The notes under the pieces are model-generated. The model did not search any database and was not told where the DNA came from. It saw only the letters and a list, made by a program, of their open reading frames with translations. Of a stretch of 24,000 nt of DNA, positions 1,144 to 8,733 are shown one piece after another. The DNA is from Methanobacterium sp. (lineage in GTDB: Archaea; Methanobacteriota; Methanobacteria; Methanobacteriales; Methanobacteriaceae). Both the position numbers and the translations under genes were made by a program. How positions within the stretch are numbered: position 1 is the stretch's first letter; every line of letters starts with the position of its first letter. The DNA lies in contig JASEIM010000005.1 of assembly GCA_030017655.1 (NCBI GenBank), positions 32,063-56,062 on the forward strand. The letters run 5' to 3'.

Positions 1144-1161
1144 ATATAACTTATGTTATAT
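1144..1161. promoter_or_regulatory. Operator-like palindrome ATATAAC-TTAT-GTTATAT upstream of the regulator gene
   Basis: Perfect 7-bp inverted arms with a 4-bp spacer, read directly. Its centre is about 73 nt upstream of the ATG at 1079. The same 14 specified bases recur at 3068 and 8646. Confidence 0.5.
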
Positions 1162-1289
1162 AACTTTATATTATTTTGCTCAAATATCCATTGATTAAAT
1201 CAATTATATATAATTTATTTCATTAAAAAAATCTTTAAATAAACTTAATTAACAATTTAACACTTTTAAACCTCTAAAATTAATATCAA

Positions 1290-2003
1290 TTAAATGCCTG
1301 ATCCTTCTGAAAATATCTCTTCGATTTCTGATTTTTTTTCAAATAGTTCATTCATTTCAATTACTGATGTTGATACTCCTAAAGCTTGAATCTTTCTTTC
1401 CATTTCATCCTGGCGCTCTAAAATAATTTTAATAATTTCTGCAACAGGATCCGGTAACTCCCCATGATCTAAATCTATAGCGCATTTACGTTCCTCTTTC
1501 ACGTTTCTTCCAGGTATTCCAACAACTGTAGACCCCATTGGCGCTGATTTTAAGACTACTGAGCCTGCACCTATTTTTGAACAGTCCCCTATTGTAATAT
1601 TTCCTATTATTTTAGCTCCTGCACCAATTACAATACCATTACCAATAGTAGGGTGCCTTTTTTTCTTTTCTAAGCTTGTTCCACCCAAAACGACACCCTG
1701 ATAAATTAAAACATCGTTTCCAATTTCTGCAGTTTCTCCAATAACTACTCCCATTCCATGATCAATGAAAACTCTTCTCCCAATTTTTGCACCGGGATGT
1801 ATTTCTATTCCTGTAAAGAAGCGAGCTAGAGCCGAAATTAATCCTGCTGAAAGCCCATGATTACGAATCCATAAGCAGTGCGCTATTCTATAAAGCCAGA
1901 TAGCATGAAGTCCAGGATATGTTAGAAATATTTCTAATTTACTTCTTGCTGCTGGATCTCTTAGCATTACCATTTGTATGTCTTCTCTAACTCGATCAAA
2001 CAT
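1290..2003 (-). CDS. cysE: Serine O-acetyltransferase
   Basis: N-terminal SATase helical motif '[27 protein letters not shown]'. Left-handed beta-helix hexapeptide repeats ('[41 protein letters not shown]'). C-terminus ends in ...GSGI, and a terminal Ile is typical of SATs that dock into CysK. Lies 28 nt downstream of cysK on the same strand. Confidence 0.9.
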
Positions 2004-2031
2004 TTGCTCGCCCCAATTTACTATTTTTTAA

Positions 2032-3018
2032 TTAATTTGTAAACTCTTCGGTTGCATATTCGTTGAATGCCTTTTCAAATACCCATTCCATACTTAGGTA
2101 GCGCTCGCCTGTATCTGGAAGAATAACAACAATTCTTTTAACCTTATTTTCTTCTCTTTTCGCCACTTCAAGGGCTGCATAAACTGCAGCGCCTGATGAG
2201 ATACCTGCAAGAATTCCTTCTTCCCTTGCCAGTCTAACCATTGTATCTGCTGCATTTTCATCTTTTACCTTGATAATTTCATCTATTAAATCTATTTCCA
2301 GTACATCAGGTATAAATCCTGCACCTATTCCCTGTATTTTATGGGATCCTGGCTGTCCTCCAGACAGTACGGGTGATGCTTCTGGTTCTACAGCTATTGC
2401 CTTAAAATCAGGATTTTTTTCCTTCAGAACCTGTGCAACACCAGTTAAAGTCCCTCCGGTACCAATACCTGCAACCAAAATATCTACTTTACCGTCTGTA
2501 TCTCTCCATATCTCATTTGCAGTTGTTTGTCTATGTATTTTGGGGTTTGCCTTGTTTTTAAATTGCTGAGGCATTACTGCATTTGGTAATTTTTCCACAA
2601 GCTCTTCGGCCTTTGCAACTGCACCTTTCATTCCATTTGCACCAGGAGTTAAGACAATTTCTGCACCTAAAAGCGCGAGCAATTTTCTTCGTTCCATGGA
2701 CATCGTGTCAGGCATGGTGAGAACTAATCTGTAATCTTTAGCCGCTGCGACAAAAGCAAGAGCTATACCTGTATTTCCGCTTGTTGGCTCCACTAAAACT
2801 GTTTCTTTATTTATAAATCCTTCCTTTTCGCCTTGTTCAATCATCGCCACTCCAATTCTATCCTTTACACTGCTTAAAGGGTTGAATGATTCTAATTTTG
2901 CCAGAACTTCTGCCTGTGCACCTTCTGTAATTCTATTCAACCTTACCAGAGGAGTATTTCCTATAAGTTCTGTAGCATCGTTTGCTATTCCTCTTTTTAA
3001 TTCTGGTATTTTAACCAT
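2032..3018 (-). CDS. cysK: Cysteine synthase A / O-acetylserine sulfhydrylase (PLP-dependent)
   Basis: '[12 protein letters not shown]' and '[11 protein letters not shown]' (PLP-lysine motif SxKDR), '[12 protein letters not shown]', and the glycine loop '[10 protein letters not shown]'. RBS AAGGTGA lies 5-6 nt upstream of the ATG at 3018. Confidence 0.92.
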
Positions 3019-3067
3019 CTATTTCACCTTGTAATACTATATGTATTTTTAATATTGTTTTTATTGT

Positions 3068-3085
3068 ATATAACTATAGTTATAT
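3068..3085. promoter_or_regulatory. Operator-like palindrome ATATAAC-TATA-GTTATAT in the cysK promoter region
   Basis: Perfect copy. Its centre is about 58 nt upstream of the cysK ATG, where an archaeal TATA/BRE would be expected for a short leader. Confidence 0.5.
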
Positions 3086-3124
3086 AACATTGTTATAAGA
3101 CAAATTTTCTGAGAATGCTCAAAG

Positions 3125-3142
3125 ATATAACTATAGTTATGT
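3125..3142. promoter_or_regulatory. Second, one-mismatch copy of the palindrome (ATATAAC-TATA-GTTATGT)
   Basis: Read directly. Lies 57 bp from the first cysK site. Confidence 0.4.
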
Positions 3143-3167
3143 TTCTTTAATTTAATTTGGTATATAA

Positions 3168-3185
3168 AATTAACGATCGTTATAT
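3168..3185. promoter_or_regulatory. Third, degenerate copy (AATTAAC-GATC-GTTATAT)
   Basis: The right arm is perfect and the left arm has 2 mismatches. The core TAAC-GATC-GTTA is itself a perfect palindrome. Confidence 0.25.
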
Positions 3186-3607: not shown

Positions 3608-4306
3608 TTAATCCCTAGTACTAAGCTCACCTCTATTATATAAACGCTGGAGTTCCGATGCATGTTTTAATTCATATTTCCATGTTGGAAGATTAAAAAA
3701 AGGGAATAAAGCCCCTTGCATAAAGTAATAATATGCTGCTATTCTACCATATTTTTTCCATGTTATATAATAATAAAGAGGAAAACCGCATCCCTGATTC
3801 ACTAGGGGACTTCCAGAACGTACTGTTCCATGATAAACCATTGGAATAGAGTTATTTTGCCCATTTTCCTTTGCAATGCCATAAACATAATTTAAAGCTT
3901 CATCGAGAGTATCAAACTCAATTCCGTCAGCCCTAAATCTCATTTTATCATCTGGAAGTCCAAATATAAACGCATTTATAACTTCTCTCCAATCTATAGG
4001 TACATCCGAGCCTTTTTTATCAATAAAGCCCAGTTGTATTATTGTTACATTTCCTTCCATATAATGGCTGTATTTCGAACTTCCCGCATAATGAAGCACT
4101 AATATACATTTAGACCCTCTTTCTTCCGCATATTGGGCTAAAAGTCTGGAATGCAGATGTCCCGGATACATATCAGGATCCTGAAACTTAACAAATGATA
4201 ATCTTCCAAAAGGTTCAATATCCCCTTCTGTGGCCAATGTATGTCCATATCCTCCAAAAAATAGAAATATTATTATTAATCCTGATAAAAGTTTCAAATG
4301 CTTCAT
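3608..4306 (-). CDS. Exported or membrane-anchored protein of unknown function (aromatic-rich)
   Basis: N-terminal hydrophobic signal/anchor 'LKLLSGLIIIFLFFGGYG'. The remainder is soluble and Tyr/Phe/Trp-rich ('FPLYYYITWKKYGRIAAYYYFMQGALFPFFNLPTWKY'). I recognise no family. Confidence 0.6.
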   Translation of the reverse strand: MKHLKLLSGLIIIFLFFGGYGHTLATEGDIEPFGRLSFVKFQDPDMYPGHLHSRLLAQYAEERGSKCILVLHYAGSSKYSHYMEGNVTIIQLGFIDKKGSDVPIDWREVINAFIFGLPDDKMRFRADGIEFDTLDEALNYVYGIAKENGQNNSIPMVYHGTVRSGSPLVNQGCGFPLYYYITWKKYGRIAAYYYFMQGALFPFFNLPTWKYELKHASELQRLYNRGELSTRD

Positions 4307-4574: not shown

Positions 4575-6950
4575 CTAAATGTCCTTAGAAGAAGCCTTAT
4601 ATAAAACAGGTTCAAGTTTATCAAGAGCCTTACTTACCTGCTTGTCGAATTCTACAAGTTTAGATGCCAATCCCCTAAAGTATGGGGCATAAACCTTATA
4701 ATACATTAATCTATCCGGATCTATACTATTTTTTAGAATTTCAGACCTGATTTCTCCCACTTTTTCTTGTATAGCAGGATACATTATATCATCAGGATAT
4801 TCACCTAAAAATATACCATCTGCACCATTTTCAAATGCATACAAAATATGTTTTGGCATTAAACGATTTATCGATGGTATTCTAATGATTCTAACTGATT
4901 CTGGATAGGATATTCTATTTATTCCAATATTATCGGCGGCCACATAACCAATATAATCTACAAAAGCAAGAATTCTTCTTTCACCATCTTTTTTGTCCTT
5001 TAGCATGCCTGAAATCATTGCAAATATTTGACTATCTGTTTGGCCCATTACTTCAACTGCTTCATTCTTACATTTTGAAATACATATTCCACAACCAGTG
5101 CAGGCAATAGGATCAACGGATATACGTTCATCATGCATATAAATAGCCTTATATTTACATGCTTTCACGCATTCGCCGCACATTTCACATTTATAATGAT
5201 CAACTACGGCGATTGTAGGTTCTATCTCTAATCCGCCATTCATTATCTCCGAAACTTTAGATGCAGCTGCATTTGCCTGAGACACACTATCTGTAATATC
5301 TTTTGGGCCCTGTGCAGTTCCACAAACATAAATTCCTTCAACATCAGTGGTTACCGGTTTTATCTTTGGATGTTTCTCTTTTACGAACAAATCTTCAGTA
5401 AGACCCACATTTAATTTCTCTGCAACTTTTAATGTTCCTTCCGATGGTTCCATTGCCTCTGATAAAACAACCATATCAGTTTCAATCTCTACTTGTTCAC
5501 CGCGAAGAGTGTCTTCAACTCTTACAACTAGATTATCACCGATCTTTGCTATATCTCCAGGACGCCCTCTTATCAGTTTAATTTCCTTAGATTGTACATG
5601 TCTGAAGTAATTTTCGTACATTCCAGGGGTTCTCATGTCTGTATAACAGATGATTATTTCAGTATCAGGATAATAGCGCCGGATAAAGTTTGCATGCTTT
5701 AACGCAACCATGCAGCAGACTTTTGAACAATATCTTTTTCCTTCAGGTTTTTCATCCCTGGAACCAGCACATTGAACCATTACCACTCTTCTTGGAATTT
5801 TACCATCTGATGGTTTGAGCAGTTTACCATTAGTAGGCCCATTAACGCCCATTATCCTTGCAAGCTCCATTTGAGTTATAACATCTTCATACCTTTCATA
5901 TCCATATTCTGGACGTTTTTTAAGGTCAAATCCTTTATGTCCTGTTGCTATAACTACTGATCCTACATTAAGAGGTATGATTTCACCTTTCATTTTAAGA
6001 TTAATAGCTCTCATTGTACAGACTTTCTGACATTTTCCACATTTAATACAATGTTTTTCATCAATCGTATAAACATCTGGAACTGATTGAGGAAATGGCT
6101 TATAAATCGCCTTTCTTAACATCAATTTTTCATTCCATTCATTAGGAACATCGACAGGACAAACTTCAGCACAGTTACCGCATGCTATACATTTATCTTC
6201 ATCAACAAAACTTGGTTTTCTTTCAACAAGCAAACTGAAGTTTCCAGCTTTTCTTTGGGAGGATTTAAGCTCTGCATTAGTGATTATAGTGATATTTTTA
6301 TGCTGGACGGCTTCATTTATCAGCGGATTAAAAAGACATAATGCACATTCTTCTGCAAGCTTTTCTGGGGAAAAAACCTTACCGATTTTTATCATGTTTC
6401 CCCCAACAGTTGGCTTTTCTTCAATTATGTGGACTTTAATACCCTGTTTTGCCAGTGAAAGCGCTGCAGTTATTCCAGATATTCCTCCACCAATTACAGC
6501 TGCGCTTTTTTTTGTTTTTCTAACTATTGCATCCAGAGGTCTGGCATACTGGACCCTTTCAATGGCCGCATTTGTAAGGGATATTGCCTTTTCTGTTGCC
6601 TTATCCACGTCTGAATGCACCCATGAACACTGTTCCCTTATATTTGCCATCTCAAGCAGATATGGATTTAAGGGGGCAACATGATTTCTAAAGGTTTTTT
6701 CGTGGGTAATTGGTGAACATGCTGCAATTACCACCCTATCTAATTCTTCCTCAAGTATAATGTCCCTTATATTCTTCTGACACTTTATAGAGCAAAGATT
6801 TTCAAATTCTTTCACCACTTTAGCATCTATTGAGGATTTAAGCCTCCCAATATCTACAGTGTCAGAAATGTTTCCCCCACATTTACATAGAAAAACTCCT
6901 ATATCAATGCTGCTTTTTGGAGCGTATCTTGAAAAATGACCGTTATTCAA
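4575..6950 (-). CDS. hdrA: Heterodisulfide reductase subunit A-like flavo-iron-sulfur protein fused to a C-terminal MvhD-like domain (HdrA2-type architecture)
   Basis: N-terminal HdrA cluster motif 'IGVFLCKCGGNIS...VVIAACSP...NIREQCSWVH'. FAD fold 'AAVIGGGISGITAALSLAKQG'. Inserted 2x[4Fe-4S] ferredoxin 'CIACGNCAEVCPV...CIKCGKCQKVC'. 'VQCAGSRD...YCSKVCCMVALKHA'. C-terminal ferredoxin 'CEMCGECVKAC...CTGCGICISKC'. Then the MvhD/FlpD-like 'ILAFVDYIGYVAADNIGINRISYPESVRIIRIPS...FENGADGIFLGEYPDD'. Start is TTG at 6950 with a GAGGT RBS 6 nt upstream. Confidence 0.85.
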   Translation of the reverse strand: MNNGHFSRYAPKSSIDIGVFLCKCGGNISDTVDIGRLKSSIDAKVVKEFENLCSIKCQKNIRDIILEEELDRVVIAACSPITHEKTFRNHVAPLNPYLLEMANIREQCSWVHSDVDKATEKAISLTNAAIERVQYARPLDAIVRKTKKSAAVIGGGISGITAALSLAKQGIKVHIIEEKPTVGGNMIKIGKVFSPEKLAEECALCLFNPLINEAVQHKNITIITNAELKSSQRKAGNFSLLVERKPSFVDEDKCIACGNCAEVCPVDVPNEWNEKLMLRKAIYKPFPQSVPDVYTIDEKHCIKCGKCQKVCTMRAINLKMKGEIIPLNVGSVVIATGHKGFDLKKRPEYGYERYEDVITQMELARIMGVNGPTNGKLLKPSDGKIPRRVVMVQCAGSRDEKPEGKRYCSKVCCMVALKHANFIRRYYPDTEIIICYTDMRTPGMYENYFRHVQSKEIKLIRGRPGDIAKIGDNLVVRVEDTLRGEQVEIETDMVVLSEAMEPSEGTLKVAEKLNVGLTEDLFVKEKHPKIKPVTTDVEGIYVCGTAQGPKDITDSVSQANAAASKVSEIMNGGLEIEPTIAVVDHYKCEMCGECVKACKYKAIYMHDERISVDPIACTGCGICISKCKNEAVEVMGQTDSQIFAMISGMLKDKKDGERRILAFVDYIGYVAADNIGINRISYPESVRIIRIPSINRLMPKHILYAFENGADGIFLGEYPDDIMYPAIQEKVGEIRSEILKNSIDPDRLMYYKVYAPYFRGLASKLVEFDKQVSKALDKLEPVLYKASSKDI

Positions 6951-6959
6951 TTTTATACC

Positions 6960-7907
6960 TCATAAACATGGATTAATCTGCTTTATTTCCTTTAAAATTC
7001 GTTCTACAGGAACTGTATGTGTTTGAACTCCTACAACAGTGTAAGGGTCAGCTCCAAGTGCAAGAGCCAAAAATTGAGAAATATTAAGGCATATAATATT
7101 AAATTCTACACCTAATGATTTTCCAATTACTTTTTGATTTCTGTCAAACTGCAGCTGGCAGTTAGGACACATTAGAAGAAGAATATCAACCTCATTCTCC
7201 TTTAAACTTAAAAGTTTTTCGGCAGTTATAGAAAATGATAACTCTTTATTCATATAACGCTGCCTGAAACCGTTACCACACGTACTGGTTTTACGATCAT
7301 ACCAGTCTACGGTTTCCACGCCACATGCTTTAGCAAGAGTTTCTAAAACCATTGGATCTCTTTCATTTCCAATTGTATCTTTTTGATGAACTTTACAGTA
7401 GTGACATGCATGATGTGCAGCCACTTTAAAGCTAGATAAATCTACTTCCACAAGATCCTGAATTTCATCTACCTTTTTATAAAGAATTTCAGTTGTATGG
7501 AATATATTATCCCTTGAATCTATATTTTCCAAATTATATTTTAAATCAGAAAGCCCTGAATCTTCAAATATTTTGTTTACGCTATTTCTAATATGATCCT
7601 TTTTATTGAGGATATTTGCTGATTTTTTTAGTATTGCATAACAGGTAGCGCACAATGTAGCAATATTTTCATGTCCTTCTTCTCTTGCAATTCCAAAATT
7701 TCTTGCTGATAGTGCAGTGGTTGAAAATTGGTCAAAAAGATCGGCATAATGCCCTAAACCAGTACAGCATGATTGTCTTTCGCTTATACTATATTCAATT
7801 CCCAGTTTATCAAATAGAAACTTTGTTGAGGATTCTACACCCGGATACTCAACATTTACAAGACAGCTTTTGAAGAGTAAAATCTTTTTATCTGGTATTT
7901 TCTTCAT
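6960..7907 (-). CDS. hdrB: Heterodisulfide reductase subunit B-like protein (two CCG domains, the second non-canonical)
   Basis: The N-terminal CCG motif is complete: C15-x31-C47C48-x37-C86-x2-C89. The C-terminal motif reads C171-x37-T209-C210-x36-C247-x2-C250, with an extra C168. It overlaps the hdrC stop by 20 nt and ends 9 nt before the hdrA start. Confidence 0.8.
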   Translation of the reverse strand: MKKIPDKKILLFKSCLVNVEYPGVESSTKFLFDKLGIEYSISERQSCCTGLGHYADLFDQFSTTALSARNFGIAREEGHENIATLCATCYAILKKSANILNKKDHIRNSVNKIFEDSGLSDLKYNLENIDSRDNIFHTTEILYKKVDEIQDLVEVDLSSFKVAAHHACHYCKVHQKDTIGNERDPMVLETLAKACGVETVDWYDRKTSTCGNGFRQRYMNKELSFSITAEKLLSLKENEVDILLLMCPNCQLQFDRNQKVIGKSLGVEFNIICLNISQFLALALGADPYTVVGVQTHTVPVERILKEIKQINPCL

Positions 7908-8511
7908 TTTTACATCGCCTTACCCTTTCTAGTCTTTTAGTAAACCCTGTCTTCTCCAAAATTTTGTTGATGTCACTTACATCTTTTTCTGCTAATAACA
8001 GGGATCCAAGACCCAGTTTTTCCCTTATATTATCCAGGTTAACCTTTAATTCAAGCCATTCCTTTCCATAATCCTTCAATAGATCCTCAGAAAAGTCATC
8101 AGGAATTGTTCCAAGTCCAAATTCAAGGAAATAATCACCATATGCCGAAAAAGGGGCTATTTTAGGTTTTCCTCTTCCATGGTCAATTGCTTTTTGTCTT
8201 AAAATTTGATTTAATTCACATGGACTGTTATTTACCGGGCATACGCTGTGACAGGTGTAACAGTAAAAACAATTCCAGATTATATCATCTGTAATTAAAT
8301 TTTCATCTTTATCCAGTACTCTTTTAACTATTTCTCTTGGATCGTAGTCTGTGTGTCTTGCTGCTGGACATACTGATGTACACATTCCACACTGAATACA
8401 TTTAAGAAGTCCGAGATTTTCTGACGCTTTTAAGTCTTTAATAATGCTTTCTACAAGTTCAAAGGTATTTTCACCTATTTTAAGAGTATTCATCTCTATT
8501 TTACCTCGCAT
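7888..8511 (-). CDS. hdrC: Heterodisulfide reductase subunit C-like 2x[4Fe-4S] ferredoxin
   Basis: 'CIQCGMCTSVCPAA' and 'CFYCYTCHSVCPV' cluster motifs in an HdrC-sized protein directly upstream of hdrB. An alternative start at the second ATG (8493, 'MNTLKIG') has a GAGGT RBS 9 nt upstream and may be the true start. Confidence 0.8.
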   Translation of the reverse strand: MRGKIEMNTLKIGENTFELVESIIKDLKASENLGLLKCIQCGMCTSVCPAARHTDYDPREIVKRVLDKDENLITDDIIWNCFYCYTCHSVCPVNNSPCELNQILRQKAIDHGRGKPKIAPFSAYGDYFLEFGLGTIPDDFSEDLLKDYGKEWLELKVNLDNIREKLGLGSLLLAEKDVSDINKILEKTGFTKRLERVRRCKNEENTR

Positions 8512-8567: not shown

Positions 8568-8575
8568 TATATAAA
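8568..8575 (-). promoter_or_regulatory. Candidate TATA box (TTTATATA on the minus strand) for the hdrCBA operon
   Basis: Matches the archaeal TATA consensus and lies 57 nt upstream of the ATG at 8511. AT-rich context, so specificity is low. Confidence 0.3.
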
Positions 8576-8645
8576 TTAAAAACAAAAATCCAAATAAGGG
8601 TCTGTTTAGCCTTTAACATATCATATATCTATAATTACAATTGTT

Positions 8646-8663
8646 ATATAACAATAGTTATAT
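8646..8663. promoter_or_regulatory. Operator-like palindrome ATATAAC-AATA-GTTATAT upstream of hdrC, overlapping a 16-bp perfect palindrome ATTGTTATATAACAAT (8640-8655)
   Basis: Perfect copy of the motif seen at 1144 and 3068. Located in the 222-bp intergenic region upstream of hdrC, about 143 nt from the ATG at 8511. Confidence 0.45.
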
Positions 8664-8733
8664 ATACTTTGCCTTTAAAAGTTTTTCATTAACTTAAATC
8701 TAACAATTTAAAAAATAATAGAAATCCTAAGTA

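Follow-up and report, generated by a model that had tools for sequence, protein, structure and literature searches.

Methanogens need very large amounts of sulfur and of iron-sulfur (Fe-S) clusters. The question raised by the present locus is whether an inverted repeat that recurs in front of its sulfur genes is the site at which these genes are regulated and, if so, which protein reads it. The locus is a stretch of 24,000 nucleotides (nt) from Methanobacterium sp. (assembly GCA_030017655.1, contig JASEIM010000005.1, positions 32,063 to 56,062), referred to here in its full length as the window. The element is an 18-bp palindrome, ATATAAC-N4-GTTATAT, which is present upstream of the gene for a cysteine-rich helix-turn-helix (HTH) protein of 132 amino acids (the regulator), upstream of cysK-cysE, and upstream of hdrCBA. 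Judged from comparative sequence analysis, the palindrome is probably the operator of a sulfur regulon of the Methanobacteriaceae, bound by the adjacent regulator, which would act as a repressor.

The window has three perfect copies of the palindrome (O-reg, O1 and O-hdr), a copy with one mismatch (O2) and a copy with two mismatches (O3); the coordinates are given in Table 1. All five were recovered where an earlier note on this DNA had placed them, and all five are intergenic, as that note had claimed for the perfect copies. A sixth match, with two mismatches, at 5137 inside hdrA, has a site-matrix score of less than 10 bits and probably arose by chance. The window is AT-rich (30-36% GC; the genome has about 33% GC), and the supposed rarity of the motif was borne out by dinucleotide shuffles of the window: 0.00 perfect copies were expected and 3 observed, whereas for copies with up to two mismatches 0.34 were expected and 6 observed, a number reached by no shuffle. 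No site in any other promoter of the window reaches 10 bits (hemA, a sirohaem-synthase-like gene, an atwA-like ABC gene, cofD, cofE, purO and exbD were among those examined), again in agreement with the earlier note. The distances to the start codons, previously estimated as about 73 and 58 nt, are 73.5 nt from the centre of the site to the ATG of the regulator gene (1079, minus strand) and 58.5 nt to that of cysK (3018), and O-hdr lies 143 nt upstream of the ATG of hdrC (8511). Only the common flanks (TTGT on the 5′ side, AAC on the 3′ side) proved approximate: the 5′ flanks are TTGTA, ATTGT and ATTGTT, and AAC is found on the 3′ side at two of the three perfect sites.

For comparison, 79 loci around orthologues of the regulator were taken from the Methanobacteriaceae (one genome per species; 0.82 Mb in total). 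These loci hold 152 copies with at most one mismatch (156 in 0.84 Mb, including the window's own four), essentially all of which are intergenic; eight matches that appeared to be coding are open reading frame (ORF) calls overrunning upstream of cysK. In the 154 kb of intergenic DNA of the relatives there are 71 perfect copies and 66 copies with one mismatch, compared with 0 and 0.45 in shuffles. The arms of the palindrome are conserved as sequence at 98-100%, and the centre of the spacer is conserved too (A in 89% of the copies, T in 90%), giving TATAAC-wATw-GTTATA. Thus, the element is a complete palindrome and not two arms alone. There are 25 occurrences in relatives of two copies that overlap at an offset of 14 bp, which explains why the element could also be read as TATATAAC repeated with a 14-bp period: the period is real, and consists of overlapping tandem operators. 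As the basic unit, a 10-bp GTTATATAAC every 14 bp was rejected, because single sites are full 18-bp palindromes with the conserved AT centre and without the outer AAC/GTT. A mobile-element or repeat origin was also rejected, because only about 20 bp are common to the copies and the flanks differ. The cores of the half-sites are 10 bp apart, a spacing that fits a dimeric HTH protein.

To establish which promoters carry the motif, ORFs were called, their proteins were clustered and the upstream regions were scored for sites; the relatives sampled are loci centred on the regulator or on hdrC, not whole genomes. A site with at most one mismatch is found upstream of cysK in 46 of 52 cases (49 when two mismatches are allowed), upstream of the gene for a ThiS-family sulfur-carrier protein (91 amino acids, ending in GG) in 12 of 20 (17 with two mismatches), and upstream of metY, which has metX behind it and is divergent from cysS, in 6 of 14 (12 with two mismatches). 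The corresponding numbers are 4/7 for an NMT1-like binding protein, 5/18 for the NifX-like gene and 20/75 for the regulator gene itself (32/75 with two mismatches). In the hdrC-centred metagenome loci there are strong sites also before TusA, PNPOx-like flavoprotein, metY/cysS and ThiF-type E1 genes. By contrast, the motif is present in none of about 180 neighbouring housekeeping promoters of the regulator-centred loci (AsnB-like 0/45, apgM 0/38, gatC-like 0/37, homoserine dehydrogenase 0/26, MurT-like 0/17, pyrG 0/15). The earlier note had proposed to look for the motif in orthologous promoters of relatives and at unrelated promoters; it is present in the former, at most cysK genes and at a minority of the regulator genes, and absent from the latter in the loci sampled. 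Given this distribution, the motif very probably serves a sulfur regulon as its specific operator. About 58-65 of 80 loci have the gene order cysK-cysE-regulator, and control of cysteine synthesis, as had been suggested, agrees with the sites at cysK, but the predicted regulon is wider (metY-metX; ThiS-, TusA- and ThiF-like; PNPOx- and NifX-like). The strong sites at the TusA, PNPOx, metY/cysS and ThiF genes indicate that it would comprise sulfur assimilation and sulfur relay, beyond cysteine synthesis.

The position of the operator within the promoter gives an indication of how it would act. In 12 aligned regions upstream of the regulator gene, with a mean identity of 53%, TATAAC..GTTATAT is invariant in all 12, and a sequence resembling the TFB recognition element (BRE) and TATA box, GCAAAAnAATATAAAT, is conserved 3-4 nt upstream of the operator. 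A TATA-like octamer was recognisable in 32 cysK promoters; in 24 of these it precedes the distal operator by 6-11 nt, typically with an A-run before it (aaaagTTTATAAA). In archaea the TATA box has its centre some 26 nt ahead of the transcription start; the operators would therefore extend over about -15 to +20, i.e., over the expected start. The earlier note had put the cysK site at the TATA/BRE itself, whereas it lies 6-11 nt downstream of the TATA-like box, apparently over the start. The boxes being predicted and the starts placed by expectation, this geometry appears to be that of archaeal repressors that block the recruitment of polymerase. In the window, the CTTATAAC box together with 3082-3088 forms a degenerate pseudo-operator with an N3 spacer. 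Sites equivalent to O2 are kept at -107 to -119 in the sub-clade of the window (loci L001, L007, L010, L011, L013 and L016), and two-mismatch sites equivalent to O3 are found at -152 to -162 in L001, L002, L007 and L010; O3 itself, just downstream of the stop codon of the NifX-like gene, is the weakest of the five. Two further features were seen in this region: a block conserved in the sub-clade at 3109-3120, with the -115 operator on one side and the cysK promoter on the other (in the window gagcattctcag, read on the cysK strand; in L010, L011 and L013 GGCATCCTCAGC), and, between O2 and O3, a TATA-like TTTTATATA (3161-3169), which could mark a second, upstream promoter.

In the mechanism proposed, a dimer of the regulator would recognise TATAAC-wATw-GTTATA, the 10 bp between the half-site cores corresponding to one helical turn, and at strong promoters two overlapping copies, 14 bp apart, would recruit two dimers. 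Bound 6-11 nt downstream of BRE/TATA and over the expected start, the regulator would block the recruitment of RNA polymerase. Its cysteines (C92, C102, C115 and C118, with C5 and C89) would most likely hold an Fe-S cluster or another metal or thiol sensor, DNA binding would report sufficiency of sulfide, cysteine or Fe-S clusters, and a shortage of sulfur would lift the repression of the genes. The regulator would also regulate itself, its gene having either its own site or being co-transcribed behind cysK-cysE. The targets in the window would be cysK-cysE, the regulator gene and, plausibly, hdrCBA by way of an upstream promoter, and the regulon as a whole would serve cysteine, homocysteine, sulfur relay and possibly Fe-S supply.

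That the regulator represses is favoured by the arrangement of the sites. The opposite sign of control, in which the regulator binds but mainly activates or acts dually, for example as an apo- or holo-form that recruits TBP/TFB, would not be without precedent: apo-IscR activates suf, and some archaeal factors act in both directions. O2, O3 and O-hdr, whose centres are far upstream of the start codons (115, 158 and 143 nt, respectively), could be accommodated in this way. But most cysK and regulator sites are downstream of the TATA-like box rather than upstream of the BRE, where archaeal activators usually bind, and in the apparently leaderless loci of distant relatives (see below) the site occupies the interval from the TATA-like box to the ATG. 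Activation is accordingly the less convincing reading, and an unlikely one.

The identity of the binding protein can be approached from distant relatives. Nine distant members of the regulator family, with 31-44% identity, were placed in their contigs, from hosts of 34-61% GC. Four lie directly upstream of iscS-iscU or iscS (P0132, P0130, P0134 and P0141), and two have the N-terminus of a cysteine desulfurase downstream (P0147 and P0217). Of the remaining three, P0265 is divergent from iscU...iscS, P0172 precedes a SAMP2 gene and P0224 follows cysE-cysK, as in Methanobacterium. In eight of these nine loci an AAC-N4-GTT core is found within 70 nt upstream of the regulator gene or its operon, usually as (A/C)TTAAC-AATT-GTTAA(T/G), whereas by chance 0.14-2.6 AAC-N4-GTT words are expected per whole locus. 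In three loci (L160, L162 and L168) the palindrome ends 1-2 nt before the ATG, about 5 nt after a TATA-like box, a layout that fits leaderless genes repressed at the start site. The core thus follows the regulator across evolutionary distance, base composition and gene context, which is hard to explain unless the family reads it. There is therefore good reason to expect that the palindrome is bound by the adjacent 132-aa protein, which the earlier note had singled out from the gene order. Autoregulation, which it had also proposed, agrees with O-reg and with the sites upstream of 20 of the 75 regulator genes of relatives; the remainder mostly lack a separate site close to the regulator gene, and elsewhere the regulator lies behind an operator-controlled cysK-cysE. 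In L160 (2455-3972), the IscU (NifU_N) gene downstream of the regulator homologue is split by an intein with a LAGLIDADG endonuclease domain.

Another transcription factor, encoded elsewhere, could in principle bind the sulfur-regulon operator, the cysteine-rich HTH protein having some other target. There are regulator genes without a nearby motif (L036, L065, L067, L073 and the Methanosphaera loci L071-L079), as would be expected on that view. It is improbable, given that the regulator gene is directly behind cysK-cysE in most loci, that no other DNA-binding gene is conserved in the neighbourhood, and that the core is immediately upstream of distant family members in unrelated contexts and compositions.

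Two remaining explanations are effectively excluded. Without any specific regulator, the motif could be an AT-rich word common to promoters in general, for instance a symmetrical TATA box, as its TATATA-like content, the low GC content of the genome and its constant location in promoter regions might suggest; against this, it is missing from the unrelated promoters listed above and from all other promoters of the window, its G/C positions and the centre of its spacer hardly vary, canonical TATA-like boxes are found as distinct elements upstream of it, and the core persists in genomes of 48-61% GC. As for a palindrome acting as RNA (a hairpin in a leader, a terminator or an attenuator), a hairpin of 7-8 bp is possible (-4.9 to -5.4 kcal/mol) and O3 is just downstream of the NifX-like gene, but the hairpin is weak, a single G-C pair being its only departure from A-U pairing, covariation between the arms is never seen, copies that overlap in tandem could not fold at the same time, the palindrome is not followed by a T-run, Rfam has no match in the window at gathering thresholds, and the sites are at or upstream of the expected transcription starts.

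The regulator itself consists of an N-terminal HTH and a C-terminal helical domain. Its match to Pfam HTH_3 (PF01381; residues 21-53) places it among the XRE/Cro-C1-type HTH proteins, marginally, with 23.9 bits compared with a gathering cutoff of 23; many orthologues have precomputed PF01381 matches. The AlphaFold model is all-helical, with a predicted local distance difference test score (pLDDT) of 75.6 and a helix-turn-helix at residues 31-49. No NCBIfam family, no Pfam family beyond HTH_3, no PDB homologue by sequence or profile, and no fold match for the AlphaFold model were found, and none of the database sources examined has an informative name for the protein; a further profile search of the protein database yielded Methanobacterium sequences alone, under generic names, and so did not extend the taxonomic range. 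Six cysteines are conserved (C5, C89, C92, C102, C115 and C118), in the pattern CxxC-x9-C-x12-CxxC with an N-terminal PCE: across the family C115 and C118 are invariant, C92 and C102 are conserved in at least 90%, and C5 and C89 are mostly conserved. The family comprises 1410 representative clusters at E<=0.001, and about 476 clusters (at 50% identity) at E<=1e-10. The regulator is distinct from Rrf2 proteins, with no Pfam or NCBIfam Rrf2 match (PF02082) at E<=0.001 and a cysteine spacing that differs from C-x5-6-C-x5-C, and from SufR, with no match to that family in Pfam or NCBIfam and with cysKE or iscSU, rather than sufBCD, as neighbours. The conservation of C92, C102, C115 and C118 would suit an Fe-S sensor and is equally compatible with zinc binding; that the sensor is an Fe-S cluster can be put forward only tentatively. 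The closest orthologues, 92% identical, are from Methanobacterium sp. MBAC-AD1 and ACI-7. Two paralogous regulator genes are found in some Methanobacteriaceae, either as a tandem pair or at separate loci (L017:4604-6393; L066:5612-6375; L070 and L073, contig DATN01000002.1), one by cysKE and hdrCBA and the other by a conserved AsnB-like gene.

The genes of the window that are relevant here are arranged on the minus strand in the order K+ channel-like gene, hdrC, hdrB, hdrA, a gene for a 232-aa protein, the NifX-like gene, cysK, cysE and the regulator gene, and cysS, whose 3′ end is in the window, is on the plus strand and convergent with this cluster. The gene for cysE begins 28 nt downstream of cysK, and the two are presumably co-transcribed. 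HdrA has 791 amino acids, including a C-terminal MvhD/FlpD domain (Pfam FlpD at residues 660-774), and an activated-sludge metagenome contig encodes HdrC, HdrB and HdrA proteins 99-100% identical to those of the window. The 232-aa protein (3608-4306, minus strand) has a hydrophobic N-terminus and belongs to no Pfam or NCBIfam family; in 11 related loci its gene is a conserved part of the sulfur cluster, with the PNPOx-like gene on one side and the NifX-like gene on the other.

Table 1. Operators, predicted promoter elements and genes in the 24-kb window (positions are those of the window; scores of operators are from the site matrix).
Feature	Position	Strand	Description
O-reg	1144..1161		ATATAAC-TTAT-GTTATAT, perfect; upstream of regulator gene, putative autoregulatory site; 22.1 bits
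O1 of cysK-cysE	3068..3085		ATATAAC-TATA-GTTATAT, perfect; 27.6 bits
O2	3125..3142		1 mismatch; upstream of cysK; 19.2 bits
O3	3168..3185		AATTAAC-GATC-GTTATAT, 2 mismatches; upstream of cysK; 10.4 bits
O-hdr	8646..8663		ATATAAC-AATA-GTTATAT, perfect; 29.7 of at most 30.8 bits, top site of the window
Weak second site overlapping O-hdr	8632..8649		TAATTAC-AATT-GTTATAT, at the usual 14-bp offset; 11.9 bits
BRE/TATA-like block of regulator promoter	1165..1180	-	AGCAAAATAATATAAA; 3 nt upstream of O-reg; fits the consensus GCAAAAnAATATAAAT; promoter role predicted from the archaeal consensus
TATA-like box of cysK promoter	3092..3099	-	CTTATAAC; 6 nt upstream of O1; predicted function
TATA-like box upstream of O-hdr	8672..8681	-	CTTTTAAAGG; precedes O-hdr by 8 nt when read on the hdr strand; might belong to a second hdr promoter that is regulated
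Regulator gene, 132 aa	681..1079	-	N-terminal XRE-type HTH and C-terminal helical domain; candidate binder
cysE (serine O-acetyltransferase)	1290..2003	-	NCBIfam TIGR01172, 240 bits compared with cutoff of 210.65
cysK (O-acetylserine sulfhydrylase)	2032..3018	-	NCBIfam TIGR01139, 464.5 bits compared with cutoff of 351; first gene of operon
hdrCBA	4575..8511	-	hdrC 7888-8511, hdrB 6960-7907, hdrA 4575-6950; NCBIfam hdrC_Methbact, hetero_SS_HdrB and hdrA_Methbact above cutoffs

Upstream of hdrC there is also a conserved TATA-like box distinct from that at O-hdr and nearer to the gene (8568-8576), and this proximal promoter block is kept in L081 and L082. The 6-kb flanks of the regulator-centred loci were too short to include the regions upstream of hdrC, and the hdrC-centred metagenome loci were used there instead. 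Among the eleven closer relatives of hdrC for which the upstream sequence was long enough, four have a strong site at -162 to -490 (L080, L081, L082 and L093) and one has a weak site (L087); L134, with 52% HdrC identity, has a strong site at -225. A second, upstream hdr promoter under control of the regulator is plausible, the case for it being evenly balanced; by analogy, IscR also controls Fe-S-rich respiratory enzymes. The genes hdrCBA, with the HdrA-MvhD/FlpD fusion, adjoin the cysK-cysE-regulator cluster or the regulator gene in the window and in L016, L065, L067, L070, L082 and L107, and a ThiF-like E1 gene is directly upstream of hdrC in L083, L089-L092, L100-L105, L108 and L135. These arrangements suggest that Hdr with an MvhD/FlpD-fused HdrA is linked to sulfur relay.

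Several observations weigh against a sulfur operator read and autoregulated by the adjacent protein, or against parts of this interpretation. The HTH_3 match of the regulator is barely above threshold, and its cysteines could be ligands of structural zinc instead of a sensing cluster. In over half of the Methanobacterium loci the regulator gene lacks a site of its own, and the Methanosphaera orthologues, with 60-65% identity, are without the motif and have another conserved upstream repeat instead. Genome-wide specificity is extrapolated from the regulator- and hdrC-centred loci. For the hdr site, six of the eleven closer hdrC relatives have none, those present are 143-490 nt from hdrC, and in L080, L081 and L093 the site is nearer (87-108 nt) to a divergent gene for a secreted Zn-phospholipase-C-like protein (Pfam Zn_dep_PLPC; L080:2963-3631, L081:16-675, L093:2705-3403). 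In these three loci, the "hdr" site may control the phospholipase-like gene instead of, or besides, hdrC.

The Methanosphaera orthologues (L071-L079) are located away from cysKE. Their conserved element, about 60-110 nt upstream of the regulator gene, reads TTATAACATTGTGAAAT-ATATATAT-T(A/C)CATTTCACA and retains one TATAAC half-site; within it, an inverted repeat, TGTGAAAT-N11-ATTTCACA, encloses a TATA-like run.

Two further arrangements were observed around the operators of Methanobacteriaceae. Between the NifX-like and Mrp genes of four loci (L064:830-1480, L037:990-1650, L053:860-1530 and L068:1880-2540) there is a conserved stretch of about 650 nt free of ORFs. A conserved hairpin (ctctataaccgaagataaa...tttatcttcggaatagag) lies within it, and at its end are two operators with an offset of 28 bp. 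As these operators follow a TTATATAT box when read on the minus strand, the stretch might represent a long leader or a non-coding RNA controlled by the regulator; Rfam gave no match for the region in L064 (E<=1). In L004, L005, L015 and L017, a nitrogenase-like NifD/K-type pair and an unnamed 290-aa gene are immediately upstream of the operator-controlled cysK. These NifD/K-type genes recall the nitrogenase-like sulfur-acquisition systems reviewed in PMC13474568.

How does the predicted system compare with known ones? The closest parallel is IscR of the proteobacterial iscRSUA operon: both are small HTH regulators with conserved cysteines, in an operon with iscS-iscU (here in the distant family members), with autoregulation (here predicted) via a palindromic site at the own promoter, and with further targets that include Fe-S-rich enzymes, a possible reason for the hdr site. 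IscR, however, is an Rrf2 winged-helix protein with a [2Fe-2S] cluster, whereas the present protein has an XRE-type HTH_3 domain and a helical cysteine-rich C-terminal domain with a different cysteine pattern and an only predicted cluster, and it belongs to an archaeal host with an archaeal promoter and another operator. CymR, the Rrf2-type master repressor of cysteine metabolism in Bacillus and Staphylococcus, similarly acts on cysK and sulfur-assimilation genes through a palindromic operator, as is predicted here for repression; but CymR is of an unrelated family, is without sensing cysteines and senses O-acetylserine via a complex with CysK, whereas the link of the present regulator is to cysK-cysE. 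SufR, which controls sufBCDS in cyanobacteria and actinobacteria, is an autoregulated repressor in which four cysteines hold a [4Fe-4S] cluster that reports Fe-S status, properties that are only predicted here; it is of another HTH class and size, controls SUF genes, and no sequence similarity between it and the regulator was found.

Two archaeal comparisons are also instructive. SurR of Thermococcales has a cysteine-based response to sulfur, with a CxxC redox switch, and its site, GTTn3AAC, is also built from GTT and AAC. SurR is, however, a winged-helix protein of about 230 amino acids that controls hydrogenase versus elemental sulfur (S0)-reduction genes, the order and spacing of the half-sites differ (GTT-N3-AAC compared with AAC-N4-GTT here), and the regulator has no SurR-type match in Pfam or NCBIfam. 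NrpR and MDR1-type archaeal repressors have one or two palindromic operators immediately downstream of BRE/TATA, over the start site, an architecture that the promoters predicted here would share; their proteins and motifs are unrelated, and their signals are nitrogen or metal.

The regulator looks like a functional counterpart of IscR, CymR or SufR on a different fold, and a familiar regulatory logic would be carried here by an uncharacterised archaeal protein family. Neither the motif nor the regulator is described in the literature that was found, of which coverage of subscription journals was incomplete, and that literature names no transcriptional regulator of cysteine synthesis, of sulfur relay or of archaeal iscS-iscU (MIS). 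A review of Fe-S biogenesis lists only bacterial sensors and names no archaeal regulator or SufR counterpart (PMC13066941), and a review of nitrogenase-like sulfur enzymes names no archaeal regulator (PMC13474568).

More speculatively, and with more doubt than confidence, the 132-aa protein could be the founding member of a widespread archaeal Fe-S/thiol-sensing family (about 476 clusters), the missing counterpart of IscR, CymR and SufR, which would read AAC-wATw-GTT and control the minimal iscS-iscU (MIS) system in some lineages and, in Methanobacteria, cysteine and homocysteine synthesis and sulfur relay, and which here would tie the Fe-S-rich HdrCBA complex to sulfur status. Should the cysteines bind a cluster, the regulator would represent a structurally new class of Fe-S sensor, and if the hdr site is functional, sulfur status would be linked to a core complex of energy metabolism. 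A function is also predicted, family-wide, for hundreds of proteins annotated merely as "helix-turn-helix domain-containing protein". Such a system is not conceptually surprising, but a concrete candidate regulator, a defined operator and a list of predicted targets give a testable handle on how methanogens regulate their supply of sulfur and Fe-S clusters.

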